The translations under genes and the position numbers were made by a program. A DNA stretch of 64,000 nt from a virus. The notes below the pieces were generated by a model that worked only from the letters and a program-made list of their open reading frames with translations, was not told the origin of the DNA and ran no database searches. The stretch's first letter is position 1, and the number at the start of each line of letters is the position of its first letter. The stretch is from IMG/VR virus record IMGVR_UViG_3300016474_000281, positions 1 through 64,000 of that record, one strand, 5' to 3'. Of this stretch, positions 4,054 through 18,496 are shown in pieces.

Positions 4054-4296
4054 ATGTACACAACATTTTATGTCATGGTTACAGTAATAAAACAAAATGA
4101 TAAAAACATACTGCGTCATTACAAAGGTGTTCACAAAGTAAGAAGTTGTCAGTGTTCTAAAGACTGTGACTGTACTTCAGAAAGTTGGGAATACGATTTT
4201 TACACAGTACATAGAATAGGAAAGAAAACCACTAAACACAATACGCTTGAAGAAGCTGAAGTAAGGTGGAATGTTGTAAACAATTTAAATCAATAA
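4054..4296 (+). CDS. hypothetical Cys-rich protein (80 aa)
   Basis: ATG ORF; contains CQCSKDCDC. Confidence 0.55.
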   Translation: MYTTFYVMVTVIKQNDKNILRHYKGVHKVRSCQCSKDCDCTSESWEYDFYTVHRIGKKTTKHNTLEEAEVRWNVVNNLNQ

Positions 4297-4298
4297 CA

Positions 4299-4502
4299 AT
4301 GAAAAAGACTGAAATGGTACTTAAATATATTTCTTCAGAAGAACTACAAGATTGTATTAACGACTATAATCAAGATAAAAGGGCGTTAGCTGTCACAAGT
4401 CTTCGTAGGTTACTTGAGCCTCACATGGGAGTTTTAAGTTTACCTACTGTAGCAAATATTATGAAAGAACTAATTATTGAATCAAATCAACAAAATCAAT
4501 AA
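4299..4502 (+). CDS. hypothetical protein (67 aa)
   Basis: The track ORF is extended upstream; ATG 4299 lies 2 nt after the previous stop. Confidence 0.55.
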   Translation: MKKTEMVLKYISSEELQDCINDYNQDKRALAVTSLRRLLEPHMGVLSLPTVANIMKELIIESNQQNQ

Positions 4503-4742: not shown

Positions 4743-4967
4743 ATGATCATACAGTTTCTCAACCAAGAAGTTGAAAAGAAATGTTTTTTCAAAGTTATAG
4801 AAACTGAAGATGATTATGACATTGAGGTACAGCCACACCCACTATATCCTATGCTTCAACCTGGTGACAGGAGAGAAGATTTAGAAGATAGTGTTATCAA
4901 GTGGCTTGAGTTTTTGAGATTAATTGTTCATGTTCCTGCTAAAAATCAAATCAAATGGGTGCAGTAA
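4743..4967 (+). CDS. hypothetical protein (74 aa; start uncertain, alternatives 4656 and 4692)
   Basis: In-frame ATG 4743 is the first start that does not overlap the upstream gene. Confidence 0.5.
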   Translation: MIIQFLNQEVEKKCFFKVIETEDDYDIEVQPHPLYPMLQPGDRREDLEDSVIKWLEFLRLIVHVPAKNQIKWVQ

Positions 4968-5275
4968 AGACATACATACTAGCGCTTATCTTAGCTGGTA
5001 TGCAGCAACCAGGTGAAGTCATTACGCTTACTTCACATTACGAGTGTTTTAACATTCAGGGGATAGACTGTAAACAAATTGTGACAGTGTTCAACATCGA
5101 GTCTAAGAGGCTAGTGATGATACAAGACAAAGCTGTTACTAAGTTTGAGTATACGGCTAACCCTAAAGTGGTTGATAACAACTACATCTTGACCAGTGGC
5201 AGTAATACATTTATTATTGACCCTGTTAGGGAAGAAATAGTATGGAGAGGGGTAGTCATTAGATATTACCCTTGA
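4955..5275 (+). CDS. hypothetical protein (106 aa)
   Basis: ATG ORF; terminator downstream. Confidence 0.6.
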   Translation: MGAVKTYILALILAGMQQPGEVITLTSHYECFNIQGIDCKQIVTVFNIESKRLVMIQDKAVTKFEYTANPKVVDNNYILTSGSNTFIIDPVREEIVWRGVVIRYYP

Positions 5276-5301
5276 AGAACTGTTTAATGATGTTTTGTTT
5301 A

Positions 5302-5332
5302 GACTGGGGGCGTAATGTTCCCAGTCTTTTTT
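5302..5332 (+). terminator. rho-independent terminator
   Basis: gactggg (5302-5308) pairs with cccagtc (5320-5326), followed by TTTTTT. Confidence 0.8.
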
Positions 5333-5343
5333 AATTTTACAAT
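5332..5343 (+). promoter_or_regulatory. Bacteroidota-type -7 box directly abutting a start codon (TAatTTTa-caat-ATG)
   Basis: Same TAnnTTT(G/A)-CAnn-ATG geometry as at 19367, 29259 and 31011. Confidence 0.35.
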
Positions 5344-5484
5344 ATGCGTATAAAGAGACTTAAACTGACTATTATAACCAACTTCACAGGTAAAGATATG
5401 AGGCGTGAAAACCTCCACTTCTTTACATCTAAGGGTGCAAATGAATCTGATGAAACTTTTAGTTCAATGTTTACATTATGCTGA
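5344..5484 (+). CDS. micro-ORF A1 (46 aa)
   Basis: pep MRIKRLKLTIITNFTGKDMRRENLHFFTSKGANESDETFSSMFTLC; 3p junction is a 7-nt overlap ATGCTGA. Confidence 0.55.
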   Translation: MRIKRLKLTIITNFTGKDMRRENLHFFTSKGANESDETFSSMFTLC

Positions 5485-5618
5485 TAAATACATACAGACT
5501 AAGTGTTATATCTATACTTACAAGTAGAGACGTTAGACATGAATTTCATTATTTCTTTGCTCGTAAGGCAATAAATGATTTTGACAAATTTATTAGTTCA
5601 ACATTTACAATGATATAA
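5478..5618 (+). CDS. micro-ORF A2 (46 aa), clear paralog of A1
   Basis: pep MLINTYRLSVISILTSRDVRHEFHYFFARKAINDFDKFISSTFTMI. Confidence 0.55.
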   Translation: MLINTYRLSVISILTSRDVRHEFHYFFARKAINDFDKFISSTFTMI

Positions 5619-5620
5619 TC

Positions 5621-5764
5621 GTGGAATTAGATACAAAACAAATACTAAATACTAATCCAGCTTATTATAGCAAGCTTGCAGTAAGTATGGAAACTTTGGC
5701 CAAATCTCACGATACATTCAATAATAAATACTACGCAATAGGAACAACTTTCACAATGGTATGA
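5621..5764 (+). CDS. micro-ORF A3 (47 aa, GTG start)
   Basis: pep VELDTKQILNTNPAYYSKLAVSMETLAKSHDTFNNKYYAIGTTFTMV; cgtggaatta resembles the usual tatggaacta junction; 3p junction ATGA. Confidence 0.4.
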   Translation: MELDTKQILNTNPAYYSKLAVSMETLAKSHDTFNNKYYAIGTTFTMV

Positions 5765-5871
5765 ACATAACTAAACCTACATACATGTATATGTTTGAGT
5801 ACAGGTTCAACAGTTTGAACAAGCTGAGATTTAATCACAAGTGGACAAGTGTATTGTTATGTTGTTACTAG
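5761..5871 (+). CDS. micro-ORF A4 (36 aa)
   Basis: pep MNITKPTYMYMFEYRFNSLNKLRFNHKWTSVLLCCY; 13-nt overlap with A5. Confidence 0.45.
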   Translation: MNITKPTYMYMFEYRFNSLNKLRFNHKWTSVLLCCY

Positions 5872-5984
5872 TTAAAGCTTATTCAGAACACGCTATAAAG
5901 AAAGAAGTAGTATTTACAAAGAGTTGGATACTGAAGAATCATTGGACACTTGATAACGTATCAATTATATTCACATGCGTATAG
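5859..5984 (+). CDS. micro-ORF A5 (41 aa)
   Basis: pep MLLLVKAYSEHAIKKEVVFTKSWILKNHWTLDNVSIIFTCV; 10-nt overlap with A6. Confidence 0.45.
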   Translation: MLLLVKAYSEHAIKKEVVFTKSWILKNHWTLDNVSIIFTCV

Positions 5985-6067
5985 TAATAAAAGTTTGTAA
6001 TTCAATATCTATTTGTACAGTAGTGGAGAAATACAAAGACCTATCAATTAGATTCATATGCAAATAA
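5975..6067 (+). CDS. micro-ORF A6 (30 aa)
   Basis: pep MRIVIKVCNSISICTVVEKYKDLSIRFICK; 10-nt overlap with A7. Confidence 0.4.
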   Translation: MRIVIKVCNSISICTVVEKYKDLSIRFICK

Positions 6068-6162
6068 CTACAGGTTTTGCAGCTTACTACGTAGTTAGTT
6101 CTATAACTATTCGTAGTACTTGGCAACCTAGGTGCATGTCAACTACGTTAATATGCGAGTAA
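6058..6162 (+). CDS. micro-ORF A7 (34 aa)
   Basis: pep MQITTGFAAYYVVSSITIRSTWQPRCMSTTLICE; 10-nt overlap with the RadC-like start. Confidence 0.4.
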   Translation: MQITTGFAAYYVVSSITIRSTWQPRCMSTTLICE

Positions 6163-6590
6163 CTAAGTACAAATTAACTTGCAAACCTACTGGTAAGTTG
6201 CAAGATGCAGCTTTTGTAAAGTGTTCTAAAGACGCTTATAACATAGCTAAAAACTTTTACAAAGATGACATATTGATTTATGAAAGTTTCTATGTCATAG
6301 CACTGAATCAAGCTAATGGTGTTATTGGGTATATGTTGATCAGCCAGGGAGGTGTAACTGCTACTTGTGTTGACCCTATACTAATAGCTAAGTTTGTTAT
6401 TGACACGTTAGCTAGAGCTGTTGTGTTGATACATAATCATCCTTCAGGAAACCTTAAACCTAGTACAGCAGATATAAACCTCACTAAGAAAACAAAAGAA
6501 GCGTTAAACTCATTAGATGTTACCGTTGTTGATCACCTTATTTTAACTGAAACTGACTATTACAGTTTTGCAGACGAAGGATTATTTTAA
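6153..6590 (+). CDS. RadC-like JAB/MPN-domain protein (145 aa)
   Basis: HNHPSGNLKPSTAD (JAMM-type HxHPxG...S..D motif) and overall RadC C-terminal-domain layout; the track start GTG 6132 is trimmed to ATG 6153. Confidence 0.8.
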   Translation: MRVTKYKLTCKPTGKLQDAAFVKCSKDAYNIAKNFYKDDILIYESFYVIALNQANGVIGYMLISQGGVTATCVDPILIAKFVIDTLARAVVLIHNHPSGNLKPSTADINLTKKTKEALNSLDVTVVDHLILTETDYYSFADEGLF

Positions 6591-6606
6591 CTAAACATAA
6601 ATAATT

Positions 6607-6759
6607 ATGCAACTACATGACATTGTATTACATGTTTCTACAAATAGACAAGGAACAGTGGTGTATGTAAGTGAAAACATGTGTACCGTAGAGTTCTACG
6701 ATGATGGTCTAGGTGTATTGGAAGATATTTCTACAGATGAACTAAAAAGAATAGGATGA
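6607..6759 (+). CDS. possible small protein (50 aa), below the track threshold
   Basis: Hand-translated MQLHDIVLHVSTNRQGTVVYVSENMCTVEFYDDGLGVLEDISTDELKRIG; its stop overlaps the next ATG (ATGA). Confidence 0.4.
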   Translation: MQLHDIVLHVSTNRQGTVVYVSENMCTVEFYDDGLGVLEDISTDELKRIG

Positions 6760-7178: not shown

Positions 7179-7943
7179 ATGACAGAGACACAAAAGTTAA
7201 TATTCTTCTTGATACTCAGGAAGTTTTTTACAGGACCTTTATATATTGAATGGTCAGAAGAAGAAGAACCTGCTGGAGTTTTTACTAAACCTGCTGGAGT
7301 TTTTACTAAAAACATACAAAAAGGTTACATACTTTGTTCAGATGATATAGTGATGGAAGTCATGGGTAATCATGTTGAAGGTTTTGAAATTGTTAGCTTT
7401 CCTGAAGATAAAGTGATAGCTGACATAAAGGAACTGTATGATACTAAACTCATTGACGAAAACTTGTATCAGTTGATGGTTGGCATTGTTGTAACGTTAG
7501 ACCATGAAGTGATCATATCTTTTCTTAGAAACTTTACTAAGTTGCCTATCAGAGGGGGTTCAACTATTATAAAGTTTGAAGATATGACTACTGAGATGAA
7601 GATACAACATGACTTATTAAAGTACACAAAAATAGTGTTTAAAAACTTTGAAATAGTACACAAAAGAACTATAGGCAACGTTAAACACTTGAAAGTTGTA
7701 TCTACAAAGCTTCAAGTTGAGATAGCTACGTTGATAGGTAATGAAGATAAAGGATATGTCATTGTACCTGATGTACCTGAAGAATTGTTCAATGATTATA
7801 TTTTTAGAACAACAATGTGTTCAAATGAGCTAAAATCAATAATACGTCAAGATGTGATAGAACATTTGTGTTCAAGTAGAGACAAAGTATATGAACCAAT
7901 CAAGTCATGGCTGAGAAGTCGTTTAAACCTACCTATTGTATGA
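7179..7943 (+). CDS. hypothetical protein (254 aa) with an in-frame 21-bp tandem duplication
   Basis: ISFLRNFTKLP paralog motif; PAGVFTK-PAGVFTK is encoded by an exact repeat. Confidence 0.7.
   Translation: MTETQKLIFFLILRKFFTGPLYIEWSEEEEPAGVFTKPAGVFTKNIQKGYILCSDDIVMEVMGNHVEGFEIVSFPEDKVIADIKELYDTKLIDENLYQLMVGIVVTLDHEVIISFLRNFTKLPIRGGSTIIKFEDMTTEMKIQHDLLKYTKIVFKNFEIVHKRTIGNVKHLKVVSTKLQVEIATLIGNEDKGYVIVPDVPEELFNDYIFRTTMCSNELKSIIRQDVIEHLCSSRDKVYEPIKSWLRSRLNLPIV
7269..7310 (+). repeat. exact 2 x 21-bp tandem direct repeat inside a CDS
   Basis: cctgctggagtttttactaaa occurs at 7269-7289 and 7290-7310. Confidence 0.95.
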
Positions 7944-8771: not shown

Positions 8772-9554
8772 ATGCAAAACGTTTCATTCACTTCATTTAC
8801 AAATCTCGACAACCTGTTGAAGAATGGTAAGGCAGATAAACCTTATATTCGCCAGGTGTACAAATCAGAAAACACAGCTTACAAGTGGCGTATTGTGTTT
8901 TGTCAGAACAAGAAGTCTGTAGCTCCTCCAGACACTAATCCACTGCTTAGAAAGACACTGAATCTCAAAGAACACTCTATTGTCACAGCTATTATGACAG
9001 CTTCAGAAGAGTTCATTGAGCAACTGGGTATCAGAACTGATGTAAACACTTTCTTCTGTAACCCTAGTAATACGAGTGTTGTAGGTGACTATGTTGTAGA
9101 AGACAAGTTGATTGCAGCTGACACTATCTTTGAAACTGAAACAGTTATCAATGTGGTAGAGTCTTTCAATGTGAATCCTTATCTGAAGCAATCTGACCCG
9201 GTGATTAACCCTTCAAAGGGTACACCTGTATTGGTTCTTGCACCTGATAACGTTATGAGACCATACTACAGACATACTGAAATCATCCCTAAGTCTAACT
9301 GGGAAGGTGATCAAAGCATTGCTCAATACATTCAAAAAGAAGTTGGTGGTGTTGGTGGTAACATATTTACCTCATCTATCATGGCACAAATCCGTAAAGA
9401 CGTTACACAAAACAATGTGGACTACAACACTGTAGAACCATATCAGTCTGTTAGGCAGTCTGAACTGTTTGATGCAGTTGAAGGTGCTAACTTCTTGGAT
9501 GGTGAAGGTATTGAAGAAGATGTGAAAAATATCACCAAAGTATTTGCTCTGTAA
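8772..9554 (+). CDS. hypothetical protein (260 aa)
   Basis: Long ATG ORF; has its own terminator at 9606-9640. Confidence 0.7.
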   Translation: MQNVSFTSFTNLDNLLKNGKADKPYIRQVYKSENTAYKWRIVFCQNKKSVAPPDTNPLLRKTLNLKEHSIVTAIMTASEEFIEQLGIRTDVNTFFCNPSNTSVVGDYVVEDKLIAADTIFETETVINVVESFNVNPYLKQSDPVINPSKGTPVLVLAPDNVMRPYYRHTEIIPKSNWEGDQSIAQYIQKEVGGVGGNIFTSSIMAQIRKDVTQNNVDYNTVEPYQSVRQSELFDAVEGANFLDGEGIEEDVKNITKVFAL

Positions 9555-9605
9555 CAAACTTGGTGTATATTTGTACAGATAATTGGTTTGCTAAATTTGT
9601 TTATA

Positions 9606-9640
9606 GCTGGGGGGAGTATAAAGCTCTCTCCAGCATTTTT
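9606..9640 (+). terminator. rho-independent terminator (stem rich in G-U wobbles)
   Basis: gctggggggagt pairs with gctctctccagc (about 12 bp including wobbles), then aTTTTT. Confidence 0.6.
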
Positions 9641-10750: not shown

Positions 10751-10781
10751 AGGGGGGAGGTCTGACTCCCCTCTTTTTTTT
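10751..10781 (+). terminator. rho-independent terminator
   Basis: aggggggag pairs with ctcccctct, 6-nt loop, then TTTTTTTT. Confidence 0.85.
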
Positions 10782-11755: not shown

Positions 11756-11781
11756 TTGATTCATGTTTATAGATTGATTTG

Positions 11782-11813
11782 AGGAGGCTGGGTTAGTACC
11801 TGGTCTCCTTTTT
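11782..11813 (+). terminator. rho-independent terminator
   Basis: aggaggctggg pairs with cctggtctcct (3 G-T wobbles), loop ttagta, then TTTTT. Confidence 0.7.
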
Positions 11814-11824: not shown

Positions 11825-11989
11825 ATGTTATTGAGTATTGAAAGTAAATACGGTATCAACAAAGAGTATTTTAACAACTTACTTGTTGTTGGAATGGGTT
11901 TGTACTCTGAAAAGTCAAGTTCAAAACGTGGCTTTTATTGGTTTGACTTGAAGCGTTTAGATTGTGGAACTACAACTGTTTTAATATGA
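11825..11989 (+). CDS. micro-ORF B1 (54 aa)
   Basis: pep MLLSIESKYGINKEYFNNLLVVGMGLYSEKSSSKRGFYWFDLKRLDCGTTTVLI; 3p junction ATGA. Confidence 0.5.
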   Translation: MLLSIESKYGINKEYFNNLLVVGMGLYSEKSSSKRGFYWFDLKRLDCGTTTVLI

Positions 11990-12252
11990 AACTTCTAAAG
12001 ATAAAGTTTAAAGGTGTTGGATGCAGAGATAATGTAGGTTCGTATTTAGAAAACAGACGTTTACCTTCTTATCTATACTGGTATAATAAAATTAGACAAC
12101 AGCTTTACAATGGTAATAATATGATACTAGAGACTACATATACTAAAGGTGAAACCAGTATTTTAAGTACCACCTATAGGAAACTTTGTGTACCAAACTG
12201 GCTGTTTGACCTTTCTGATTTACAGCTTAGTTTTATACCTATACTAATATGA
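11986..12252 (+). CDS. micro-ORF B2 (88 aa, looks like two fused units)
   Basis: pep MKLLKIKFKGVGCRDNVGSYLENRRLPSYLYWYNKIRQQLYNGNNMILETTYTKGETSILSTTYRKLCVPNWLFDLSDLQLSFIPILI; an internal aataatatgata junction is read in frame; 3p junction ATGA. Confidence 0.55.
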   Translation: MKLLKIKFKGVGCRDNVGSYLENRRLPSYLYWYNKIRQQLYNGNNMILETTYTKGETSILSTTYRKLCVPNWLFDLSDLQLSFIPILI

Positions 12253-12362
12253 TAGTTTCAATTAAATTCATAAAAGAATCAGATTTTACTGGATTAATGT
12301 TTCCTTTTGTAAAAGGTTGTGAAATTGATTCAGCTACTTTAATACTACACGTATGGAACTAG
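12249..12362 (+). CDS. micro-ORF B3 (37 aa)
   Basis: pep MIVSIKFIKESDFTGLMFPFVKGCEIDSATLILHVWN; 3p junction ATGGAACTAG. Confidence 0.5.
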   Translation: MIVSIKFIKESDFTGLMFPFVKGCEIDSATLILHVWN

Positions 12363-12484
12363 CAACTACAACATTAGTGTTTATGAGTTTATTTGGTGAA
12401 AGATATGTGTACAATCCACAATACTTTAGTGAGTTGTACATGAGAAAATTAGATCATGATTCTGTACATCTAACACTACACTGA
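12353..12484 (+). CDS. micro-ORF B4 (43 aa)
   Basis: pep MELATTTLVFMSLFGERYVYNPQYFSELYMRKLDHDSVHLTLH; 3p junction TGATG. Confidence 0.5.
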   Translation: MELATTTLVFMSLFGERYVYNPQYFSELYMRKLDHDSVHLTLH

Positions 12485-12588
12485 TGAAGATAAAAACCAC
12501 AGGAATACACTACAAGAAGTTTTACAAAGAATATTATTGGATCACAAACTCTAGTAAAGTGGGTAGTACATATTTAATTATACATTGA
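12484..12588 (+). CDS. micro-ORF B5 (34 aa)
   Basis: pep MKIKTTGIHYKKFYKEYYWITNSSKVGSTYLIIH; 3p junction TGATG. Confidence 0.5.
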   Translation: MKIKTTGIHYKKFYKEYYWITNSSKVGSTYLIIH

Positions 12589-12695
12589 TGGAAATCAAAA
12601 TAATATTTAAGCAATATCTTAGTGCTAAAGGGTTATTTTTCCCTAGTGTCAAGTATATATCTTCTAACGTAACTACATTATTTTACATAGTATGA
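12588..12695 (+). CDS. micro-ORF B6 (35 aa)
   Basis: pep MEIKIIFKQYLSAKGLFFPSVKYISSNVTTLFYIV; 3p junction ATGA. Confidence 0.5.
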   Translation: MEIKIIFKQYLSAKGLFFPSVKYISSNVTTLFYIV

Positions 12696-12802
12696 AAATC
12701 AAATGGTATCTTATGACTAGAATAGATATTAAAGTACATTCTACATACAGCAGTCTTACCCTAATGAATGATTCTTTAAGTACTGTAATGTTACTGATAT
12801 GA
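12692..12802 (+). CDS. micro-ORF B7 (36 aa), paralog of B12
   Basis: pep MKIKWYLMTRIDIKVHSTYSSLTLMNDSLSTVMLLI; 3p junction ATGA. Confidence 0.55.
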   Translation: MKIKWYLMTRIDIKVHSTYSSLTLMNDSLSTVMLLI

Positions 12803-12936
12803 AAGTAACTTTAAGACTAGTAGGAAGTTGTTATCTAAACAAAAAGTTTTACGTATGGTATTCAATAAAGCATTATGTTATGTGGAATACTATGAACAAA
12901 CAAATACACTGTTCAAATACATTTATGTTAATATGA
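12799..12936 (+). CDS. micro-ORF B8 (45 aa), paralog of B13
   Basis: pep MKVTLRLVGSCYLNKKFYVWYSIKHYVMWNTMNKQIHCSNTFMLI; 3p junction ATGA. Confidence 0.55.
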   Translation: MKVTLRLVGSCYLNKKFYVWYSIKHYVMWNTMNKQIHCSNTFMLI

Positions 12937-12962
12937 AAGTAGCTTTATTAGATGTGAGATGA
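12933..12962 (+). pseudogene. micro-ORF B9, 9-aa stump of a unit
   Basis: pep MKVALLDVR; normal ATGA junctions on both sides but the body is deleted. Confidence 0.4.
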
Positions 12963-13063
12963 AAATAAAAATTTCAGCAATACACGATAACAAGTTTTAT
13001 TATGAACATTCTTGGTTTATAGAAGGTTACAAAGGGTTTAGTGTACATTTAATTACAAACTGA
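12959..13063 (+). CDS. micro-ORF B10 (34 aa)
   Basis: pep MKIKISAIHDNKFYYEHSWFIEGYKGFSVHLITN; 3p junction TGATG. Confidence 0.5.
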   Translation: MKIKISAIHDNKFYYEHSWFIEGYKGFSVHLITN

Positions 13064-13179
13064 TGGAGTTAAAACTAACAGCAAAACACTATCATGTATC
13101 TGAAGATACGTGGAAGCTAGTAGATGTGTATTTTGGTTTAAAAAGTAAGTACATAGGCACTGAAATTTTACTAATATGA
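13063..13179 (+). CDS. micro-ORF B11 (38 aa)
   Basis: pep MELKLTAKHYHVSEDTWKLVDVYFGLKSKYIGTEILLI; 3p junction ATGA. Confidence 0.5.
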   Translation: MELKLTAKHYHVSEDTWKLVDVYFGLKSKYIGTEILLI

Positions 13180-13292
13180 AGATTACCTGGAAACTTATGA
13201 CCAGATTTGGTACTAAAGTACATTCTACATATAGCAATGTCAAGTTAATAGATGATAACATGAGTACTGCAATCTTATTGATATGGAAATAA
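13176..13292 (+). CDS. micro-ORF B12 (38 aa), paralog of B7
   Basis: pep MKITWKLMTRFGTKVHSTYSNVKLIDDNMSTAILLIWK; 3p junction ATGGAAATAA. Confidence 0.55.
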   Translation: MKITWKLMTRFGTKVHSTYSNVKLIDDNMSTAILLIWK

Positions 13293-13426
13293 CTTTAAAG
13301 ATAACTGGAGGTTGCTGTACAAACAAGAAGTACATTTTACTTCATTCAGCAAAATATTACGCTACTTGGCTTGGTAGAAAAGATAAACAGTTAGCTGATT
13401 GTTCATATATATTTACAATGATATGA
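13283..13426 (+). CDS. micro-ORF B13 (47 aa), paralog of B8
   Basis: pep MEITLKITGGCCTNKKYILLHSAKYYATWLGRKDKQLADCSYIFTMI; 3p junction ATGA. Confidence 0.55.
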   Translation: MEITLKITGGCCTNKKYILLHSAKYYATWLGRKDKQLADCSYIFTMI

Positions 13427-13584
13427 GACTACATAGAGAATACGGTTTTGAAGACATGGACATAGAGATACTTGTGTATGGAGGTTACTTTCATAACACT
13501 AAGCTTGGCATAGATCCGTATAAAATACTCAATGATTTTCGTAGACAGTATGAAACTCGTTCAACAATACTTACTTTAGTATGA
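13423..13584 (+). CDS. micro-ORF B14 (53 aa)
   Basis: pep MRLHREYGFEDMDIEILVYGGYFHNTKLGIDPYKILNDFRRQYETRSTILTLV; track ORF 13399-13584 trimmed to the ATG; 3p junction ATGA. Confidence 0.55.
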   Translation: MRLHREYGFEDMDIEILVYGGYFHNTKLGIDPYKILNDFRRQYETRSTILTLV

Positions 13585-13733
13585 GATTAGATAGATTATT
13601 AGGTGAAACTGATATCATCACTGCCAAAGGTAGTTATTTTAACATGCACTTCAGCAATGAAGCTAACTTAAGTTGGAGGTGTACACTTAGGCTTGCTTAT
13701 TTACTCAAATCTATAATGTTTACAATGATATGA
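13581..13733 (+). CDS. micro-ORF B15 (50 aa)
   Basis: pep MRLDRLLGETDIITAKGSYFNMHFSNEANLSWRCTLRLAYLLKSIMFTMI; 3p junction ATGA. Confidence 0.55.
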   Translation: MRLDRLLGETDIITAKGSYFNMHFSNEANLSWRCTLRLAYLLKSIMFTMI

Positions 13734-13882
13734 ATCTAAATGATTTTTTTGGTATATCTGGAGCTGGACATATTTCAAAAATGATTCAGATGAAAAGGTT
13801 TCCAACACTAATGATGCATCTTGAACTCAAGAACAGAATAGTAAAAGATTTAGGAGCTATAACTATACTAAAATGGAACTAA
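13730..13882 (+). CDS. micro-ORF B16 (50 aa)
   Basis: pep MNLNDFFGISGAGHISKMIQMKRFPTLMMHLELKNRIVKDLGAITILKWN; 3p junction ATGGAACTAA. Confidence 0.55.
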   Translation: MNLNDFFGISGAGHISKMIQMKRFPTLMMHLELKNRIVKDLGAITILKWN

Positions 13883-14016
13883 AAGTATTACGTAAGTCAG
13901 GAGCTGGATATTACTCAGAGCCTTTCAAAAAAGTTACTGAAATTGTATTTAAGAGTTATACTCCATACAGGTATAACGTAGCAAAAAATATAAGCATAAT
14001 AACTATACTGAGATGA
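13873..14016 (+). CDS. micro-ORF B17 (47 aa), tandem twin of B18
   Basis: pep MELKVLRKSGAGYYSEPFKKVTEIVFKSYTPYRYNVAKNISIITILR; 3p junction ATGA. Confidence 0.6.
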   Translation: MELKVLRKSGAGYYSEPFKKVTEIVFKSYTPYRYNVAKNISIITILR

Positions 14017-14162
14017 ACTTAAAAGTGTCACGTAAGTCAGGAGGTGGATACTTTACACAACCTTTTTTAGTAAGAAATGACATTGTGTTAATGAGTTATG
14101 TTTCATACAAGTTTAACGCAACAAAAGATACAAGCTTAATAACTATATTGATATGGAAGTAA
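14013..14162 (+). CDS. micro-ORF B18 (49 aa), tandem twin of B17
   Basis: pep MNLKVSRKSGGGYFTQPFLVRNDIVLMSYVSYKFNATKDTSLITILIWK; 3p junction ATGGAAGTAA. Confidence 0.6.
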   Translation: MNLKVSRKSGGGYFTQPFLVRNDIVLMSYVSYKFNATKDTSLITILIWK

Positions 14163-14278
14163 GAGTTAATAAAGTAGGTGGTGCTTACTACAGTTTAAAA
14201 GATAAACAAACTGATGTGTATTACTGCAGACATTTTCATTCAACACAAACTAATGGAACTAAATTAGTACTGCAATGA
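14153..14278 (+). CDS. micro-ORF B19 (41 aa)
   Basis: pep MEVRVNKVGGAYYSLKDKQTDVYYCRHFHSTQTNGTKLVLQ; 3p junction ATGA. Confidence 0.55.
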   Translation: MEVRVNKVGGAYYSLKDKQTDVYYCRHFHSTQTNGTKLVLQ

Positions 14279-14430
14279 AGGTAGTATCTAAGACATTTGT
14301 AAGTGGTCATTTTAACGAGCAGCTTAAAGATTTAGTTGGGAAGAATATTTTTATTCTCAGGTTCTTACCTTCAAAAGTAGATGGAGATATTATTAACTGT
14401 GTTACTAGTGTAAATTTTATTTCAATATGA
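14275..14430 (+). CDS. micro-ORF B20 (51 aa)
   Basis: pep MKVVSKTFVSGHFNEQLKDLVGKNIFILRFLPSKVDGDIINCVTSVNFISI; 3p junction ATGA. Confidence 0.55.
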   Translation: MKVVSKTFVSGHFNEQLKDLVGKNIFILRFLPSKVDGDIINCVTSVNFISI

Positions 14431-14537
14431 AATTAAAAAGACTTCCTATAACAAGTTACACTCACATAAGAATGGAACCCATATATTTTAGACAATTTAC
14501 TTCTAGCTTAGGAGGTGTTACAACAGTAGTGATATGA
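14427..14537 (+). CDS. micro-ORF B21 (36 aa)
   Basis: pep MKLKRLPITSYTHIRMEPIYFRQFTSSLGGVTTVVI; 3p junction ATGA. Confidence 0.5.
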   Translation: MKLKRLPITSYTHIRMEPIYFRQFTSSLGGVTTVVI

Positions 14538-14674
14538 GACTGTACGCATTAAATGTAGTTGGTTGTTATTGGAACAATAAAGGCGATAGTTTCACAATGT
14601 TAAAAAAAAAGCACTACCTTATTTATGTTTACGCAGGTAGCATAGTTGATTCAACAATATTAATATGCAATTAG
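14534..14674 (+). CDS. micro-ORF B22 (46 aa)
   Basis: pep MRLYALNVVGCYWNNKGDSFTMLKKKHYLIYVYAGSIVDSTILICN; 3p junction ATGCAATTAG. Confidence 0.55.
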   Translation: MRLYALNVVGCYWNNKGDSFTMLKKKHYLIYVYAGSIVDSTILICN

Positions 14675-14811
14675 ATCAGGTTGTATTACTTGGAGGAGAT
14701 GCTTGTGATAAATTTAGACATTTTGTTTCAAATTCAATATTGTCTGGATACTATCAAGACCCTGACTATAAACATAAACTTGACTCAATAATCTTAATGT
14801 TATGGAAATAA
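14665..14811 (+). CDS. micro-ORF B23 (48 aa)
   Basis: pep MQLDQVVLLGGDACDKFRHFVSNSILSGYYQDPDYKHKLDSIILMLWK; 3p junction ATGGAAATAA. Confidence 0.55.
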   Translation: MQLDQVVLLGGDACDKFRHFVSNSILSGYYQDPDYKHKLDSIILMLWK

Positions 14812-14957
14812 ATATAGTTAAAATGCTAGGTGGAGCTATATACAACGATAATACTCTTTTGTCAGATTCAAAGAGGAATACACATTCATCTTGGGATTTC
14901 ATATCTTTTGACACAGCTTATGATATACAGTCAACAATCTTGATGTTATGGAGTTAA
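14802..14957 (+). CDS. micro-ORF B24 (51 aa)
   Basis: pep MEINIVKMLGGAIYNDNTLLSDSKRNTHSSWDFISFDTAYDIQSTILMLWS; 3p junction ATGGAGTTAA. Confidence 0.55.
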   Translation: MEINIVKMLGGAIYNDNTLLSDSKRNTHSSWDFISFDTAYDIQSTILMLWS

Positions 14958-15091
14958 ATAGAATAGTGATTGTAGGTGGTAATATGTTTACCGAAAACAG
15001 TCTATATCAGTTTACTAAAGCTTTTCAATTCTATTCGTTACAAGTGAAACTTACTCCTCGTAGTTCAACAACATTCATACTATGGAAATAG
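14948..15091 (+). CDS. micro-ORF B25 (47 aa)
   Basis: pep MELNRIVIVGGNMFTENSLYQFTKAFQFYSLQVKLTPRSSTTFILWK; 3p junction ATGGAAATAG. Confidence 0.55.
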   Translation: MELNRIVIVGGNMFTENSLYQFTKAFQFYSLQVKLTPRSSTTFILWK

Positions 15092-15240
15092 ATAAAATCA
15101 TGATGACAGGTGGAGATATATATGAACGTTTTCCTTACATGTTTATTAAAATATATCCATTTTACTCAGTATTGTTTAATACAAACAAAACTGATTCAAC
15201 AACATTTATACTATGGGGCTGTTTAGAAAAATACAAATAA
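15082..15240 (+). CDS. micro-ORF B26 (52 aa)
   Basis: pep MEIDKIMMTGGDIYERFPYMFIKIYPFYSVLFNTNKTDSTTFILWGCLEKYK; 28-nt overlap with B27. Confidence 0.55.
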   Translation: MEIDKIMMTGGDIYERFPYMFIKIYPFYSVLFNTNKTDSTTFILWGCLEKYK

Positions 15241-15344
15241 GTGGTGGTTGTTTTAGAAATCATTTGTTTGGTTATGAACCTTTATGCGGGTGGGAATACA
15301 AAAGAATTGACCAAGATGAATCTATTATATTTTGTTTAACCTAA
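15213..15344 (+). CDS. micro-ORF B27 (43 aa), twin of B28
   Basis: pep MGLFRKIQISGGCFRNHLFGYEPLCGWEYKRIDQDESIIFCLT; 10-nt gap before B28. Confidence 0.55.
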   Translation: MGLFRKIQISGGCFRNHLFGYEPLCGWEYKRIDQDESIIFCLT

Positions 15345-15354
15345 TAAAACTATT

Positions 15355-15486
15355 ATGAATCTTTTTAAAAGAATAATCTATGGAGGTGGGCGTGGTAGTC
15401 ATTCAAAAAGTATAAACCTGGTTTTACATTTGTATAACTTCAATAAGGTTAAACCAGATGAATCAATTATAACTGTTTGTTTATGA
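15355..15486 (+). CDS. micro-ORF B28 (43 aa), twin of B27
   Basis: pep MNLFKRIIYGGGRGSHSKSINLVLHLYNFNKVKPDESIITVCL; 3p junction ATGA. Confidence 0.55.
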   Translation: MNLFKRIIYGGGRGSHSKSINLVLHLYNFNKVKPDESIITVCL

Positions 15487-15611
15487 AGATAGCAATGATG
15501 AAGAGAGGTTTATCTTTCTTTAATACAAGAACAAATCCAGCTTTTCATCCCTGGACTTACTCAGCTAAAATGACAAATGTACTTATTGGAACAAAACTTA
15601 TCTTGATATGA
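15483..15611 (+). CDS. micro-ORF B29 (42 aa)
   Basis: pep MKIAMMKRGLSFFNTRTNPAFHPWTYSAKMTNVLIGTKLILI; 3p junction ATGA. Confidence 0.5.
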   Translation: MKIAMMKRGLSFFNTRTNPAFHPWTYSAKMTNVLIGTKLILI

Positions 15612-15757
15612 AACTAAAAAGTAGAATAATTGGAGAAGGTTACGGCATGTCTAAAAGAGAAATAAGAGATAACAAAGGAAACTCTTATTACCACGCGATG
15701 AAGTTTAAAGATGGTTCTAAAGCAGCTTCAGTAAACATTATACTAACATGGAACTAG
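15608..15757 (+). CDS. micro-ORF B30 (49 aa)
   Basis: pep MKLKSRIIGEGYGMSKREIRDNKGNSYYHAMKFKDGSKAASVNIILTWN; 3p junction ATGGAACTAG. Confidence 0.55.
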   Translation: MKLKSRIIGEGYGMSKREIRDNKGNSYYHAMKFKDGSKAASVNIILTWN

Positions 15758-15888
15758 ATACAATAAGTAAAGGTTACAGTTTTAAATCACCTTTAGCAAA
15801 CATCACCTACATGACCTTAGTTAAAGATACTAAGGTCAAGTTTAGTACGTTGGCAACAAGTAGTATGTTGCTAATATTGACACGATGA
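15748..15888 (+). CDS. micro-ORF B31 (46 aa)
   Basis: pep MELDTISKGYSFKSPLANITYMTLVKDTKVKFSTLATSSMLLILTR; 3p junction ATGA. Confidence 0.55.
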   Translation: MELDTISKGYSFKSPLANITYMTLVKDTKVKFSTLATSSMLLILTR

Positions 15889-16019
15889 GAATTGGAAACA
15901 ACTTATTTGGAGGTAGTTATTATATGCCTAAGAATATAAAGATAGTTGCAGATTATCACGGTGTATTAAGACATACAGCTTCATCCCTTAGAAGTACAAC
16001 ACTTATCTTATGGAACTAA
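15885..16019 (+). CDS. micro-ORF B32 (44 aa)
   Basis: pep MRIGNNLFGGSYYMPKNIKIVADYHGVLRHTASSLRSTTLILWN; 3p junction ATGGAACTAA. Confidence 0.55.
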   Translation: MRIGNNLFGGSYYMPKNIKIVADYHGVLRHTASSLRSTTLILWN

Positions 16020-16156
16020 AAACAGATACGTTTGGTAGTTGCTATTTTACAGATGGACAGTGGCACAAAGACTTTATGTTAGACGCTAACTTTATCTCTA
16101 TTAGTGAAAGTGTTCAGACTCAAAGTAAAAGCGCAATACTAGTACTATGGAATTAA
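16010..16156 (+). CDS. micro-ORF B33 (48 aa)
   Basis: pep MELKTDTFGSCYFTDGQWHKDFMLDANFISISESVQTQSKSAILVLWN; 3p junction ATGGAATTAA. Confidence 0.6.
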   Translation: MELKTDTFGSCYFTDGQWHKDFMLDANFISISESVQTQSKSAILVLWN

Positions 16157-16305
16157 AGTTTGACATATCAGGAGGTAGTCACGCTACTACAGACTTAGTT
16201 AGTGTTCAAAAGAAATCTGTGTTTGACACAGACTTTAAAATTTTTAAAGCTAGGGAACTTCATGGACACAATCACATAAGTACAAATTTGATAGTATGGA
16301 ACTGA
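16147..16305 (+). CDS. micro-ORF B34 (52 aa)
   Basis: pep MELKFDISGGSHATTDLVSVQKKSVFDTDFKIFKARELHGHNHISTNLIVWN; 3p junction ATGGAACTGA. Confidence 0.6.
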   Translation: MELKFDISGGSHATTDLVSVQKKSVFDTDFKIFKARELHGHNHISTNLIVWN

Positions 16306-16445
16306 GAACTAACACACTAGGTAATTGCTACTGTACAAATAAGAATCACTATAAAGTGCCAATGGATAACACGACAAATTACGCTCCTATCAGAACATTC
16401 TTGATACTTAAAAATAGAGGTATAACACTAATACTATGGAACTAA
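16296..16445 (+). CDS. micro-ORF B35 (49 aa)
   Basis: pep MELRTNTLGNCYCTNKNHYKVPMDNTTNYAPIRTFLILKNRGITLILWN; 3p junction ATGGAACTAA. Confidence 0.6.
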   Translation: MELRTNTLGNCYCTNKNHYKVPMDNTTNYAPIRTFLILKNRGITLILWN

Positions 16446-16585
16446 CTGTTGATATATTTGGTAGTAGCTATGATATAGACTCACTTGAACATACAGTGTT
16501 TATAACAGAATTTAGTGTACTTATGCCTATATCAAGATGTTATGAAGTTAAAAATACAGGTGCAATCTTACTGTTATGGAACTAA
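16436..16585 (+). CDS. micro-ORF B36 (49 aa)
   Basis: pep MELTVDIFGSSYDIDSLEHTVFITEFSVLMPISRCYEVKNTGAILLLWN; 3p junction ATGGAACTAA. Confidence 0.6.
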   Translation: MELTVDIFGSSYDIDSLEHTVFITEFSVLMPISRCYEVKNTGAILLLWN

Positions 16586-16722
16586 AGTCTGATATATCAG
16601 GTGCTTCTTATGGAGGATCCTACTTTGTAGATAGGACAAGAATACAACTTAAACGATATGAATTTATATCTGCTGGAATTTGGAAAGGAAAAACTATATC
16701 AACACTATTTGTATGCAGTTAA
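16576..16722 (+). CDS. micro-ORF B37 (48 aa)
   Basis: pep MELKSDISGASYGGSYFVDRTRIQLKRYEFISAGIWKGKTISTLFVCS; 3p junction ATGCAGTTAA. Confidence 0.6.
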   Translation: MELKSDISGASYGGSYFVDRTRIQLKRYEFISAGIWKGKTISTLFVCS

Positions 16723-16856
16723 GAGTTAACTTCTTAGGAATATGCTACTCCAAATGTGAAGTAAGAGATAGAGATATTAAGTCACAACGTTGGGAGTTTG
16801 TAGAAATTAAATCTTGGAATCAAAAAAACATGTCAACGTTAATGTTATGTATTTAG
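16713..16856 (+). CDS. micro-ORF B38 (47 aa)
   Basis: pep MQLRVNFLGICYSKCEVRDRDIKSQRWEFVEIKSWNQKNMSTLMLCI; 3p junction ATGTATTTAG. Confidence 0.55.
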   Translation: MQLRVNFLGICYSKCEVRDRDIKSQRWEFVEIKSWNQKNMSTLMLCI

Positions 16857-16987
16857 ATTTTAAAATGATTGGAGCTGGGTATGAAACACATAACCAATGG
16901 TACAGGATTCAATCTGCTTTAATGGCATTTGGAATACACCGTGGATTTAACGATTTAGACGTAGGATTAAAAACAATACTAATATGA
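16847..16987 (+). CDS. micro-ORF B39 (46 aa)
   Basis: pep MYLDFKMIGAGYETHNQWYRIQSALMAFGIHRGFNDLDVGLKTILI; 3p junction ATGA. Confidence 0.55.
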   Translation: MYLDFKMIGAGYETHNQWYRIQSALMAFGIHRGFNDLDVGLKTILI

Positions 16988-17124
16988 AAATAGCATCAGA
17001 TTTAGCTGGAGGTTCTATATATAACACTAAAAGTATACTTAAAAGTGTATTTGTGCAACCAGCATTATACAGACAAAGAGAAAAAACCGATTCAACTAGA
17101 AGTAGTATAACTATACTAATATGA
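16984..17124 (+). CDS. micro-ORF B40 (46 aa)
   Basis: pep MKIASDLAGGSIYNTKSILKSVFVQPALYRQREKTDSTRSSITILI; 3p junction ATGA. Confidence 0.6.
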   Translation: MKIASDLAGGSIYNTKSILKSVFVQPALYRQREKTDSTRSSITILI

Positions 17125-17267
17125 AACTAAAAATAAATTATAGAGGCATTTCAATATTTCAAAAAGATACATATCTTGAATCTGCTAAGTCACAAAAAGG
17201 ACTGGCACAACAATATGTAAGCTTTTTTGTAAATAAAGTATTAAGTACAACAACATTACTAATATGA
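17121..17267 (+). CDS. micro-ORF B41 (48 aa)
   Basis: pep MKLKINYRGISIFQKDTYLESAKSQKGLAQQYVSFFVNKVLSTTTLLI; 3p junction ATGA. Confidence 0.55.
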   Translation: MKLKINYRGISIFQKDTYLESAKSQKGLAQQYVSFFVNKVLSTTTLLI

Positions 17268-17413
17268 AGTTACAATCAGATATTGTTGGTGGATCGTATG
17301 TACAGAATGAAGATTGTTTTAAACTTCATCTTATAGGTGTAGAGTATTCTGATACGTATACTTTTCTCAGCTATGTAGATAACAATGTAGGTTTAATATC
17401 ATTACTAGTATGA
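17264..17413 (+). CDS. micro-ORF B42 (49 aa)
   Basis: pep MKLQSDIVGGSYVQNEDCFKLHLIGVEYSDTYTFLSYVDNNVGLISLLV; 3p junction ATGA. Confidence 0.6.
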   Translation: MKLQSDIVGGSYVQNEDCFKLHLIGVEYSDTYTFLSYVDNNVGLISLLV

Positions 17414-17553
17414 AATTAAGATTAAATGGAACATTAACTTCTCCTTATATGGGAGCAAGCTGTTATACTGGAATCAATCATAAGAGACATAGTTCTTTAA
17501 AGCTGTGGGCACGTCTACCCAGGACTTGTGGAGCTTCAATTGTGTTGATATGA
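17410..17553 (+). CDS. micro-ORF B43 (47 aa)
   Basis: pep MKLRLNGTLTSPYMGASCYTGINHKRHSSLKLWARLPRTCGASIVLI; 3p junction ATGA. Confidence 0.55.
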   Translation: MKLRLNGTLTSPYMGASCYTGINHKRHSSLKLWARLPRTCGASIVLI

Positions 17554-17681
17554 AGTTGATAGAAAACTTAAACATATATCACTGTTCTTTAGACAAAGAA
17601 AGACAACTATGCCAATTCAAGTATAAACACCATTATGCTGTCATAAATGAATACATAAGTTGTTTAAACATACTGATATGA
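17550..17681 (+). CDS. micro-ORF B44 (43 aa)
   Basis: pep MKLIENLNIYHCSLDKERQLCQFKYKHHYAVINEYISCLNILI; 3p junction ATGA. Confidence 0.55.
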   Translation: MKLIENLNIYHCSLDKERQLCQFKYKHHYAVINEYISCLNILI

Positions 17682-17806
17682 AACTGAGTTATGAATGTTT
17701 TAAGAGAAGAGGCATATACTTTAAAGGATACTTGACATCACCTAAACATACTATTTTCATTCAAGTCAAGTATTGGGACGTAGGTATGTTAAACATATTG
17801 TCATAA
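17678..17806 (+). CDS. micro-ORF B45 (42 aa)
   Basis: pep MKLSYECFKRRGIYFKGYLTSPKHTIFIQVKYWDVGMLNILS; the 3p junction is ATAA because the next unit has lost its ATG. Confidence 0.5.
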   Translation: MKLSYECFKRRGIYFKGYLTSPKHTIFIQVKYWDVGMLNILS

Positions 17807-17928
17807 GATTGCATTACTTTATATTGTTTAGAGGATCAAGTTACAGTTCTATAAAAAAAGGTGTATTTGTAAATACGTCTCTTCGTAACAGAAACAAAAC
17901 TAAATCAATAATTACAGCACTTCTATGA
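17803..17928 (+). pseudogene. micro-ORF B46: intact 41-codon unit whose start codon is ATA (TTG two codons later)
   Basis: pep (I)RLHYFILFRGSSYSSIKKGVFVNTSLRNRNKTKSIITALL; tcATAAgat sits where other units have tcATGAaa; 3p junction ATGA. Confidence 0.4.
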
Positions 17929-18068
17929 ACATAATGTGTAAAATAAGAATGACTGGAGGAGACTATTCAACAGGACACTTTGATAGATTTATATATCAGA
18001 ATAAGTGTTACGAACATTACTTGGATCGTAGGTTTATTGAAACAGCTTTACAGCTTATTGTTATATGA
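17925..18068 (+). CDS. micro-ORF B47 (47 aa)
   Basis: pep MNIMCKIRMTGGDYSTGHFDRFIYQNKCYEHYLDRRFIETALQLIVI; 3p junction ATGA. Confidence 0.55.
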   Translation: MNIMCKIRMTGGDYSTGHFDRFIYQNKCYEHYLDRRFIETALQLIVI

Positions 18069-18112
18069 AACTTAATTCGTTATACACTATGAGACTTAAT
18101 CCGTTGTACACT
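18065..18112 (+). repeat. 2 x 24-bp tandem repeat (21/24 identical)
   Basis: atgaaacttaattcgttatacact (18065-18088) and atgagacttaatccgttgtacact (18089-18112). Confidence 0.9.
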
Positions 18113-18208
18113 ACAATTGTTTGTATAGGTATGCATAGGACATTAGCTTATTACCAGCCAATTACAAGATTAAGTTATGAAGATTCAATTATACTTGTAA
18201 CAATATGA
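18065..18208 (+). CDS. micro-ORF B48 (47 aa) with an internal 24-bp tandem duplication of its own start region
   Basis: pep MKLNSLYTMRLNPLYTTIVCIGMHRTLAYYQPITRLSYEDSIILVTI; 3p junction ATGA. Confidence 0.55.
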   Translation: MKLNSLYTMRLNPLYTTIVCIGMHRTLAYYQPITRLSYEDSIILVTI

Positions 18209-18351
18209 ATCTATCCTGGAACGATAACAACTGGCCTTTTACTATAATGGTTAGAGGAGGTAACTTTAAGCGATGTGCACACATGTACACTACTGGTATA
18301 TATGTAACTTACTCTTCAAAACATTACTCAGCTATACTAGTGACAACATGA
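18205..18351 (+). CDS. micro-ORF B49 (48 aa)
   Basis: pep MNLSWNDNNWPFTIMVRGGNFKRCAHMYTTGIYVTYSSKHYSAILVTT; 3p junction ATGA. Confidence 0.55.
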   Translation: MNLSWNDNNWPFTIMVRGGNFKRCAHMYTTGIYVTYSSKHYSAILVTT

Positions 18352-18485: not shown

Positions 18486-18496
18486 ACAAACATAAG

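Follow-up and report, generated by a model that had tools for sequence, protein, structure and literature searches.

The stretch of DNA analysed here, termed the window, comprises positions 1 to 64,000 of the viral record IMGVR_UViG_3300016474_000281 in IMG/VR, and the element in question, referred to as array A, is a series of seven small open reading frames (ORFs), A1 to A7, that tile positions 5344-6162 of the + strand without interruption and run into a gene for a RadC-like protein with a JAB domain. Taken as a whole, the observations are probably best explained by a chain of seven micro-genes belonging to a lineage-specific family, which turns over unit by unit and hands its ribosomes over to the RadC-like gene. 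Comparison with a diverged relative shows the predicted ORFs of array A to be real genes under purifying selection. Two further arrays of the same format, B and C, lie downstream on the same strand (Table 1).

The start coordinates of A1 to A7 and RadC, taken modulo 3, read 1,0,2,1,0,2,1,0, that is, a frame step of -1 at every junction, and the overlaps from A1/A2 to A7/RadC measure 7, -2 (a gap), 4, 31, 10, 10, and 10 nucleotides (nt). A1 and A2 share 37% identity over all 46 residues without a gap (pairwise E=3e-10). The tails of A1 (SSMFTLC), A2 (SSTFTMI), A3 (GTTFTMV), A5 (VSIIFTCV), and A7 (STTLICE) fit a pattern of a small residue followed by hydrophobic ones, with a looser fit for A4 (SVLLCCY) and A6 (LSIRFICK). 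A previous sequence-only reading had described seven overlapping ORFs of 30-47 amino acids (aa) stepping back one frame per junction, A1 and A2 as paralogs, and the hydrophobic tails FTLC, FTMI, FTMV, and IFTCV; its coordinates and frames proved exact to the base, the paralogy extends over the full length of the two units, and all four tails were found. Chains of this kind do not arise by chance. Among 2000 first-order Markov sequences matched in length and composition, none reached the array A chain of 7 units and 819 nt when ORFs of at least 30 aa were considered, the best attaining at most 5 units and 652 nt, and the reverse complement of the region yields a chain of a single unit.

Selection was assessed against L011, a Logan contig from a diverged syntenic relative with the same gene order; the ENA contig L009 is 100% identical to the window and hence uninformative in this respect. 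RadC is 64% and the upstream 106-aa gene 88% identical between L011 and the window, and between these two genes L011 carries an open chain of one A1/A2-like unit followed by A3, A4, A5, and A6. The first of these, 50 aa long and 54% identical to A1 with a ratio of nonsynonymous to synonymous substitution rates (dN/dS) of 0.36, resembles A1 and A2 about equally, and A2 as a unit of its own and A7 are missing. A3 begins with ATG and has an equal length in L011 (62% identity, dN/dS 0.30), A4 and A6 are likewise of equal length (75% and 0.21; 57% and 0.43), and A5 has ATG where the window has GTG at 5841 (74%, 0.31). The per-unit dN/dS values of 0.21-0.43 compare with 0.24 for RadC and with 0.43 and 0.60 for two small neighbours of 50 aa and 134 aa, respectively. 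For the five orthologous units pooled, the proportions of synonymous and nonsynonymous differences in the annotated frames are pS 0.43 and pN 0.18, giving a pN/pS of 0.42 (Fisher p=2e-8) with no stop codon in either genome, versus pN/pS of 0.58-1.23 and 14-49 stops in the five alternative frames.

The nucleotide alignment of the two genomes contains exactly four indels between the 106-aa gene and RadC (Table 1). Frame-breaking indels in relatives had been named beforehand as a check, and L011 shows none outside the non-coding A2/A3 gap. The earlier view of array A as a genuine chain of small genes rather than spacer is thus borne out by pN/pS and by the in-frame indels. The same reading had taken A3-A7 for an older or decaying copy and a GTG start for a sign of degeneration, which is contradicted because A3-A6 are conserved (57-75% aa identity) with dN/dS values like that of RadC, and because L011 has ATG at the GTG sites of the window.

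Table 1. Features of array A and its surroundings in the window, and indels relative to L011.
Feature	Position	Strand	Length	Description
Terminator-like element	5301-5337	+		Hairpin 5301-5327 (12 pairs, 6 GC; 3-nt loop) followed by T-run; terminator scan
A1	5344-5484	+	46 aa	ATG start; MRIKRLKL...SSMFTLC
A2	5478-5618	+	46 aa	ATG start; 7-nt overlap with A1 (ATGCTGA)
A3	5621-5764	+	47 aa	GTG start, 2 nt past A2 stop; (M)ELDTKQ...GTTFTMV
A4	5761-5871	+	36 aa	ATG start; overlap with A3 is ATGA
A5	5841-5984	+	47 aa or 41 aa	47 aa from GTG 5841 (31-nt overlap with A4), 41 aa from ATG 5859
A6	5975-6067	+	30 aa	ATG start; 10-nt overlap with A5
A7	6058-6162	+	34 aa	ATG start; 10-nt overlap on each side; tail STTLICE
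RadC-like JAB-domain gene	6153-6590	+	145 aa	PF04002 E=4.1e-35; PHROG 10276; HNHPSG metal-binding motif
Array B	11825-19336	+		Some 55 micro-ORFs (34-53 aa) in a chain; bulk of the family
Array C	21603-22753	+		8 chained units; same family
Indel vs L011			12 nt	In frame, inside A1
Indel vs L011			134 nt	Unit A2 entire
Indel vs L011			95 nt	Unit A7 entire
Indel vs L011			1 nt	At A2/A3, the sole non-overlapping junction

One segment of A5 stands out at the nucleotide level. Positions 5919-5965 form a 47-nt block with one substitution relative to L011, synonymous divergence being about 0.4 elsewhere, and within it lies the perfect palindrome TTGATA-ACG-TATCAA (5950-5964), of which the general form TTGATA-N3-TATCAA has no second copy elsewhere in the window. 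This block may be under an additional nucleotide-level constraint, such as that of an operator or hairpin.

These data bear directly on two explanations that do without micro-genes. It is very improbable that the region is a non-coding spacer or DNA repeat (iterons, a promoter array, or a recombination hotspot) with accidental ORFs: the junctions are indeed conserved as DNA, the composition resembles that of translated AT-rich DNA, and the family was found in the databases searched only in this phage species, apart from the diverged A-unit orthologues of L011, but the chain length is never reached in random sequence, the synonymous excess is specific to the annotated frames, the ORFs are kept in L011, indels respect units or frame, and sigma-70-like sites are not enriched. 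Moreover, the tail Ser of array B is coded by TCN and AGY codons alike, or swapped for Gly, which only amino-acid selection explains. Scarcely credible is a reading of the region as a series of small structured RNAs, or as coding for a single long protein through repeated programmed -1 frameshifting, as might be imagined from the regular unit length of about 95-145 nt and from the 15-30 nt around each junction that are open in both frames. Most junctions pair a start (ATG, with GTG or TTG at a few) with an overlapping or adjacent stop that a fusion would not need, no shared slippery heptamer was apparent on reading the junction sequences, an Rfam search of the whole window returned only a tRNA-Met, and the RNA fold z-score of the array A region is -1.5 even with the terminator hairpin included.

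Comparison of strains points to the turnover of entire units. At the array A locus, 7 units in the window correspond to 5 in L011, paralogous junction repeats bracket A7 (6039-6070 and 6134-6165), and paralogous junction sequences lie at 5956-5983, at 6039-6066, and before RadC. The repeats around A7 and the equal similarity of the first L011 unit to A1 and A2 fit unequal recombination at conserved junctions, whereby whole units would be added or removed and both the chain and its -1 step preserved automatically. A similar picture is seen for array B in L010, a strain 95% identical to the window in the flanking genes, in which units are extra, missing, or replaced: its array head (L010 2385-3400) holds at least four units not found in the window, other units are missing from L010, and two seemingly orthologous positions share merely 23% and 49% identity. 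Within the window, a 96-aa ORF at 11962-12252 is the fusion of two unit fragments after deletion of whole units. Orthologous B units of the window and L010 give a pN/pS of 0.35 (p=4e-5), compared with 0.04-0.10 for the flanking genes, which indicates that the predicted proteins are constrained, yet evolve faster than their neighbours; the mutual identity of array paralogues is 15-30%. In a third lineage, L014 (upstream gene 81% identical), the gene and hairpin are followed by a different pair of micro-ORFs with an ATGA overlap, and a more distant one (L015 and L016, 64%) keeps the hairpin and has neither chain nor RadC. Silent gene-conversion cassettes were considered as well and rejected, since cassettes of that sort could do without the ATG and stop present in most units.

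The mechanism favoured here can be outlined as follows. Array A would be a polycistronic block of seven translated micro-genes in the window and five in L011, which would belong to, or at least share junctions and architecture with, a three-array family of some 70 members. Tandem duplication would have generated the units from a cassette in which the stop overlaps the start of the one that follows (ATGA type), and the -1 step at each junction would be inherited from these overlaps, since any stop/start overlap of 1-mod-3 length produces such a step, and kept since later indels are in frame. The conserved junctions would act as recombination sites at which units are gained, lost, and swapped with the chain unbroken. 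In the absence of Shine-Dalgarno (SD) sites, ribosomes would most likely pass from cistron to cistron by termination-reinitiation, and the final hand-over would start the RadC-like gene, tying RadC output to translation of the chain.

The enzyme gene at the end of the chain is well defined, with a PF04002 score of 120.8 bits against a cutoff of 22.1, an H-x-H-P-x-G metal motif, and 1422 homologues at E<=1e-20, among them proteins from Hymenobacteraceae, Cytophagales, and Phocaeicola. Its start at 6153 is backed by L011 and by homologues of 144-148 aa. In both genomes the gene overlaps the end of the ORF ahead of it by 10 nt, A7 in the window and A6 in L011, and the junction sequence (ATATGCrrGTrA) is a paralogue of those at A5/A6 and A6/A7; that the same overlap occurs behind different units supports coupling by termination-reinitiation. 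An SD-like motif precedes none of the 39 conventional + strand genes of the window, so termination-reinitiation is the obvious route to the RadC start. In other prokaryotes, coupling has been found to be tight at short overlaps and to be almost completely lost at a spacing of about 20 nt (PMC10666635). At nine other RadC loci examined, no ORF terminates at the start of RadC, and we infer that the coupling is plausible and specific to this lineage. Of the claim that the chain is translationally joined to an enzyme gene, the position of the RadC start inside the chain and its conservation in L011 stand, and the coupling itself is predicted. The resemblance of the RadC N-terminus, MRVTKYKL, to that of a unit does not hold, as ordinary, array-free RadC homologues have an N-terminal strand to which its K-Y-K-L segment aligns.

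The position of RadC also allows the chain to be read as a translated ladder of upstream ORFs with incidental peptide sequences, which shields the transcript from Rho and RNases and meters or delays the ribosomes that reach RadC. The chain runs exactly up to the RadC start in both genomes, the RadC link is kept although the unit number differs (7 and 5), SD sites are absent, and every reinitiation step would attenuate the ribosome flow. This explanation is nevertheless improbable, for the amino acids are conserved (in-frame pN/pS 0.42) and the tail Ser is retained through both codon classes, arrays B and C are followed by unrelated genes or a gap, and the nine other RadC loci manage without a ladder.

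Upstream of A1, the terminator scan recovered the terminator that the sequence-only reading had placed there. The element ends 7 nt ahead of the A1 start, would close the upstream operon, and is 100% identical in L011; L014 and L015 have a hairpin and T-run at the same position past the orf106 homologue, with a different stem sequence. A GC-rich stem-loop, a U-run, and a conserved structure are what is expected of an intrinsic terminator, termination itself being predicted. The "-7-like box" claimed behind it fared less well: TAATTTTA does sit at 5332-5339 but departs from the TAnnTTTG consensus, L011 reads TAATTCTA in its place, and neither an exact TAnnTTTG box between the hairpin and the A1 ATG (5328-5344 scanned) nor a Bacteroidota-type promoter (TAnnTTTG with TTTG at about -33) before A1 was found. 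The full promoter pattern (TTTG-N17-23-TAnnTTTG) occurs in the window only at 9543-9599, 19344-19374, and 44580, and sigma-70-like sites show no enrichment. The first two are the sole + strand matches of the early block, with a whole-window count not above chance; the one at 19344-19374 lies right behind the end of array B and ahead of a gene at 19379.

Hairpins of this type recur throughout the window. On the + strand, strong GC-rich hairpins with a T-run are located at 2127-2153, 2915-2944, 5301-5327, 9606-9634, 10751-10774, 11781-11810, 21385-21410, 29971-30000, 33717-33742, and 35721-35749. Between 1 and 20 kb, 20 hairpins with a T-run were counted versus 6.8 expected from shuffles. The T-runs often continue with AAC or AAT, and among those checked (2915, 5301, 9606, 10751, 11781, and 29971) the next ATG follows only about 15-25 nt past the hairpin. 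Every array has a strong hairpin with a T-run on its 5' side, immediately before A (5301) and B (11781) and about 190 nt before C (21385). These hairpins could be terminators, attenuators, or phage-specific signals.

The earlier suggestion that the family is dispersed in the genome holds, with three arrays in all, of which C is newly found; together they amount to about 70 micro-genes, which take up some 9.5 kb, about one seventh, of the roughly 66-kb phage genome. Array B begins at 11825, just behind the hairpin at 11781-11810, rather than at 12249, and follows the consensus M-[EK]-L-x(4-5)-G-x-x-Y ... S/G-x-x-h-h-h-h, in which all 27 canonical units have a Gly at about residue 9-12, usually as GGxY (Tyr or His two residues on). 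Its overlaps are 1, 4, or 10 nt, rarely -2, -5, -11, 13, or 28, and nearly all are of the ATGA or 10-nt type. Upstream of B starts, T recurs at -1, -4, -7, and -10, the second codon positions of the preceding ORF, at which T makes the residue hydrophobic; this periodicity is missing upstream of conventional genes, which show an aperiodic A-rich leader. In units with "WN" or "WK" tails, a following start of ATGG (Met-Glu) rather than ATGA (Met-Lys/Asn) makes the upstream frame read TGG-AAY, and the frame then stops at a TAA or TGA formed by the Leu codon of the next unit; the tail Trp is thus a by-product of ATGG replacing ATGA. Array C is joined by GTGA, ATGA, 7-nt, and 10-nt overlaps, and its end lies 12 nt short of the gene at 22766. 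Several of its units contain the G-A-S-Y/H motif of array B, and scores against a hidden Markov model (HMM) of B reach 13.5 bits, with five of the seven scored units (C3-C7) within the top 2.4% of control ORFs.

Array A conforms to the family format, with + strand ORFs of 30-55 codons and stop/start overlaps equal to 1 mod 3, and it further shares with B the M-x-[ILV] starts and a tail of Ser/Gly plus 4-6 mainly hydrophobic residues. B11 and B13 end in FTMI, as does A2, and the junction 13-mer TTTACAATGATAT at the end of A2 is the same at the ends of B11 and B13. Perfect matches to the junction 13-mer TTYACAATGRTAT occur in the window only at the ends of A2, A3, B11, and B13, and allowing one mismatch gives 6 matches versus 0.87 expected, a number that none of 100 shuffles reached. 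In a first whole-window search of stop-to-stop segments with the B HMM, six of the seven A units were listed at E 0.55-7.6, the exception being A2; in a second, of ATG-to-stop ORFs, the A units scored 0.4-8.6 bits, with A1 highest (8.6) and A3 second (6.5). Relative to 123 control ORFs, six of seven rank within the top 1.6-4.9%, and as a group the A units score above these controls (Mann-Whitney p=1.7e-4). The claim that A units belong to the array B family is weakly supported: architecture, tail type, and junction 13-mer are common to both, the GGxY motif is not, and the profile scores are low. Common origin of the cassette format and junctions of A and B is partly supported by these comparisons, with the A units being either very diverged or a separate subfamily.

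Several observations weigh against the proposed micro-gene chain and its place in the family. The Gly/GGxY hallmark of array B is aligned in register in no A unit, and homology of A with B is not significant by profile methods, the best hhalign result being E=0.013 for A3 with probabilities below 2%. Searches with single units returned nothing at E <0.1 in PHROGs, Pfam, and PADLOC, a profile search of the PDB nothing at E<=10, and AlphaFold2 gave unusable models, with predicted local distance difference test (pLDDT) scores of 57 and 56 from a 54-sequence and a curated 27-sequence paralogue alignment, respectively. L011 is the sole diverged relative covering array A, so that the dN/dS values rest on small counts (about 54 synonymous and 90 nonsynonymous differences). 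A strong hairpin stands 7 nt 5' of the array with no canonical host-type promoter behind it, the A2/A3 junction is a gap and not an overlap, and overlaps of 4 or 1 nt have been studied better than those of 7-31 nt. Start/stop overlap is also a genome-wide habit, with 17 of 38 adjacent conventional pairs overlapping, nine of them by ATGA, and the RadC overlap therefore need not be a special regulatory device.

The family has no detectable homologue outside this phage lineage in the databases searched, as judged from its sequences. Nucleotide search of 4900-6700 against 50,697 phage genomes gave no match, and a translated search of the same genomes with ten concatenated B units (tblastn) gave a single spurious one (E=0.1). 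Profile search of 1.84 billion representative proteins and a collection of 5.8 billion clusters retrieved same-species variants only. A degenerate junction pattern matched IMG/VR at 99 single, evidently random sites and no arrays, although this pattern is insensitive, with one match in the window itself. No relatives of the DNA polymerase, orf106, or the FGE-like protein were retrieved from IMG/VR and JGI metagenomes.

Various known product types were considered and rejected. Kelch or WD40 beta-propeller blades, suggested by the hhhh-GG ... LW[NK] arrangement, were examined by running Pfam on two concatenations of 20 B units each and on all seven A units, and no Pfam repeat family appeared at E<=10. 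An array of precursors of ribosomally synthesized and post-translationally modified peptides was dismissed for lack of a modification-enzyme logic and of a conserved core/leader split, C-terminal degrons or clamp-binding tails because the terminal residues are not conserved, and TGA-to-Trp recoding because ORFs of 905-2542 codons are intact in the standard code.

The predicted unit proteins are mostly basic (median isoelectric point 9.4) and beta-prone in composition, rich in Ile, Leu, Ser, Thr, Tyr, and Phe and poor in Glu, Asp, Ala, and Pro. On the basis of early-block context, conflict-type neighbours (pentapeptide repeat, RadC, and FGE-like proteins; PMC5512222), relaxed constraint, and cassette turnover, they might be small early proteins directed against the host, for takeover or anti-defence, each with its own specificity, which we consider a tentative possibility. 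RadC domains have been described in conflict-related proteins of mobile elements (PMC5512222). Quite improbable is a heteromeric assembly, in which the units would be pieces of a split repeat protein, with an amphipathic strand at the N-terminus, a Gly turn, and a hydrophobic strand at the C-terminus; a single mRNA would supply them in fixed order and equal amounts, and they would assemble co-translationally. The conserved termini and variable middle of B units, their beta-prone, hydrophobic composition, and the lack of a confident AlphaFold2 monomer, as expected for an obligate oligomer, would agree with it; variation of unit number and identity between 95% identical strains is hard to square with a fixed assembly, and the concatenated units matched no Pfam repeat family (Kelch and WD40 included) and no PDB profile. 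A broader proposal, which we regard as speculative and rather unlikely, is that the arrays constitute a new viral gene organisation: a heritable library of about 70 distinct micro-proteins, made serially by ribosome hand-over from a few mRNAs and diversified by cassette recombination at conserved junctions, that would act as binders or decoys of host systems or as ordered subunits of a co-translational assembly, array A being a detached sub-library tied to a RadC-like enzyme of nucleic-acid processing.

The wider genome is phage-like, with 35% GC, and its DNA polymerase is most similar to those of crAss-like phages (28% identity), so the source is probably a distant crAss-like lineage; the absence of SD motifs and the taxa of the RadC homologues fit a Bacteroidota-type host. 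Array A lies in a + strand block (1-35.7 kb) encoding proteins of replication and nucleotide metabolism, namely a polymerase, two helicases, a Toprim protein, a dCMP deaminase, and ThyX, together with pentapeptide-repeat, RadC-like JAB, and FGE/SUMF1-like proteins, and this block is early or replicative. Its pentapeptide-repeat protein (412-1119, Pfam E=1.4e-57) is of a type known as DNA mimics. Two ORFs of about 70-80 aa, 1089-1334 and 4260-4502, look by eye like paralogues (..ITM.K......L.SE.L......NQ at the end), the second lying within a 426-nt segment (4063-4489) that is not in L011. A perfect 21-nt tandem repeat of 2.1 copies (7267-7310) in a 254-aa gene codes twice for PAGVFTK, and the single tRNA-Met (CAT) at 19834-19908 separates array B from the genes for dCMP deaminase and ThyX. 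On the - strand, 35756-61530 carries five very large genes (1340, 1116, 2391, 2542, and 905 aa) with no PHROG match but for one domain (phrog_2072), consistent with a very divergent crAss-like virion module.

Micro-proteins of fewer than 50 residues are routinely dropped in phage annotation; here they take up about one seventh of the genome and, by the comparisons above, are kept by selection, and an apparent 0.8-kb "spacer" before RadC becomes five to seven conserved genes. Array A alone is a modest conserved satellite that supplies the cross-genome evidence for coding, joins the format to a conventional gene, and offers a testable link between micro-gene translation and RadC expression. Cassette turnover between near-identical strains is expected at a host-virus conflict interface, and the arrays may thus encode a novel class of small effectors directed against the host. 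Should translation of the chain proceed by serial termination-reinitiation, it would surpass all other natural examples in length and lend itself to measurements of reinitiation efficiency in SD-independent (Bacteroidota-type) translation.

The ingredients of this organisation, namely overlapping coupled cistrons, small early phage genes, and tandem expansion of paralogues, are singly known, and the literature searched holds no account of a phage with dozens of chained micro-cistrons from one family. As with upstream ORFs and leader peptides, a short ORF ends on the RadC start and is kept in L011; unlike these, array A comprises 5-7 ORFs that are conserved and constrained at the amino-acid level, units of this type also make up two arrays with no enzyme gene at their end, and other RadC genes (0/9 loci) have no such leader. 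Viral multigene families and accordions offer another parallel. Amplification of K3L in poxviruses is referred to as a "genomic accordion", and segmental amplification of tifA in T4 was reportedly described by Srikant et al. in 2022. Common to these and the present arrays are tandem paralogues in the early, host-interaction part of the genome, copy numbers that vary among close relatives, and amino-acid evolution faster than that of core genes; the copies here, however, are old (15-30% identity), each under purifying selection, and micro-proteins.

In the related assemblage of Zeta-group crAss-like phages, regions "occupied by short ORFs" without recognizable proteins have been reported (Yutin et al. 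2021, PMC7886860). These are likewise made up of short ORFs only, with predicted proteins that differ even among similar genomes (PMC7886860), but they have different polarities and no family or chaining was described, whereas the ORFs here are on one strand, chained, and paralogous, a contrast drawn from the description only. The closest functional precedent is provided by overlapping gene pairs coupled through termination-reinitiation at ATGA or TGATG (Huber et al. 2019 PMC6728339; 2023 PMC10666635), which share with the present arrays co-directional cistrons, overlaps of 4 nt or another 1-mod-3 length, and no ribosome-binding motif of their own. Such coupled genes come in pairs or small numbers and are of ordinary size, in contrast to the approximately 70 paralogous cistrons of at most 50 codons found here, up to 55 of them consecutive, with a chain joined to an enzyme gene by a predicted coupling.

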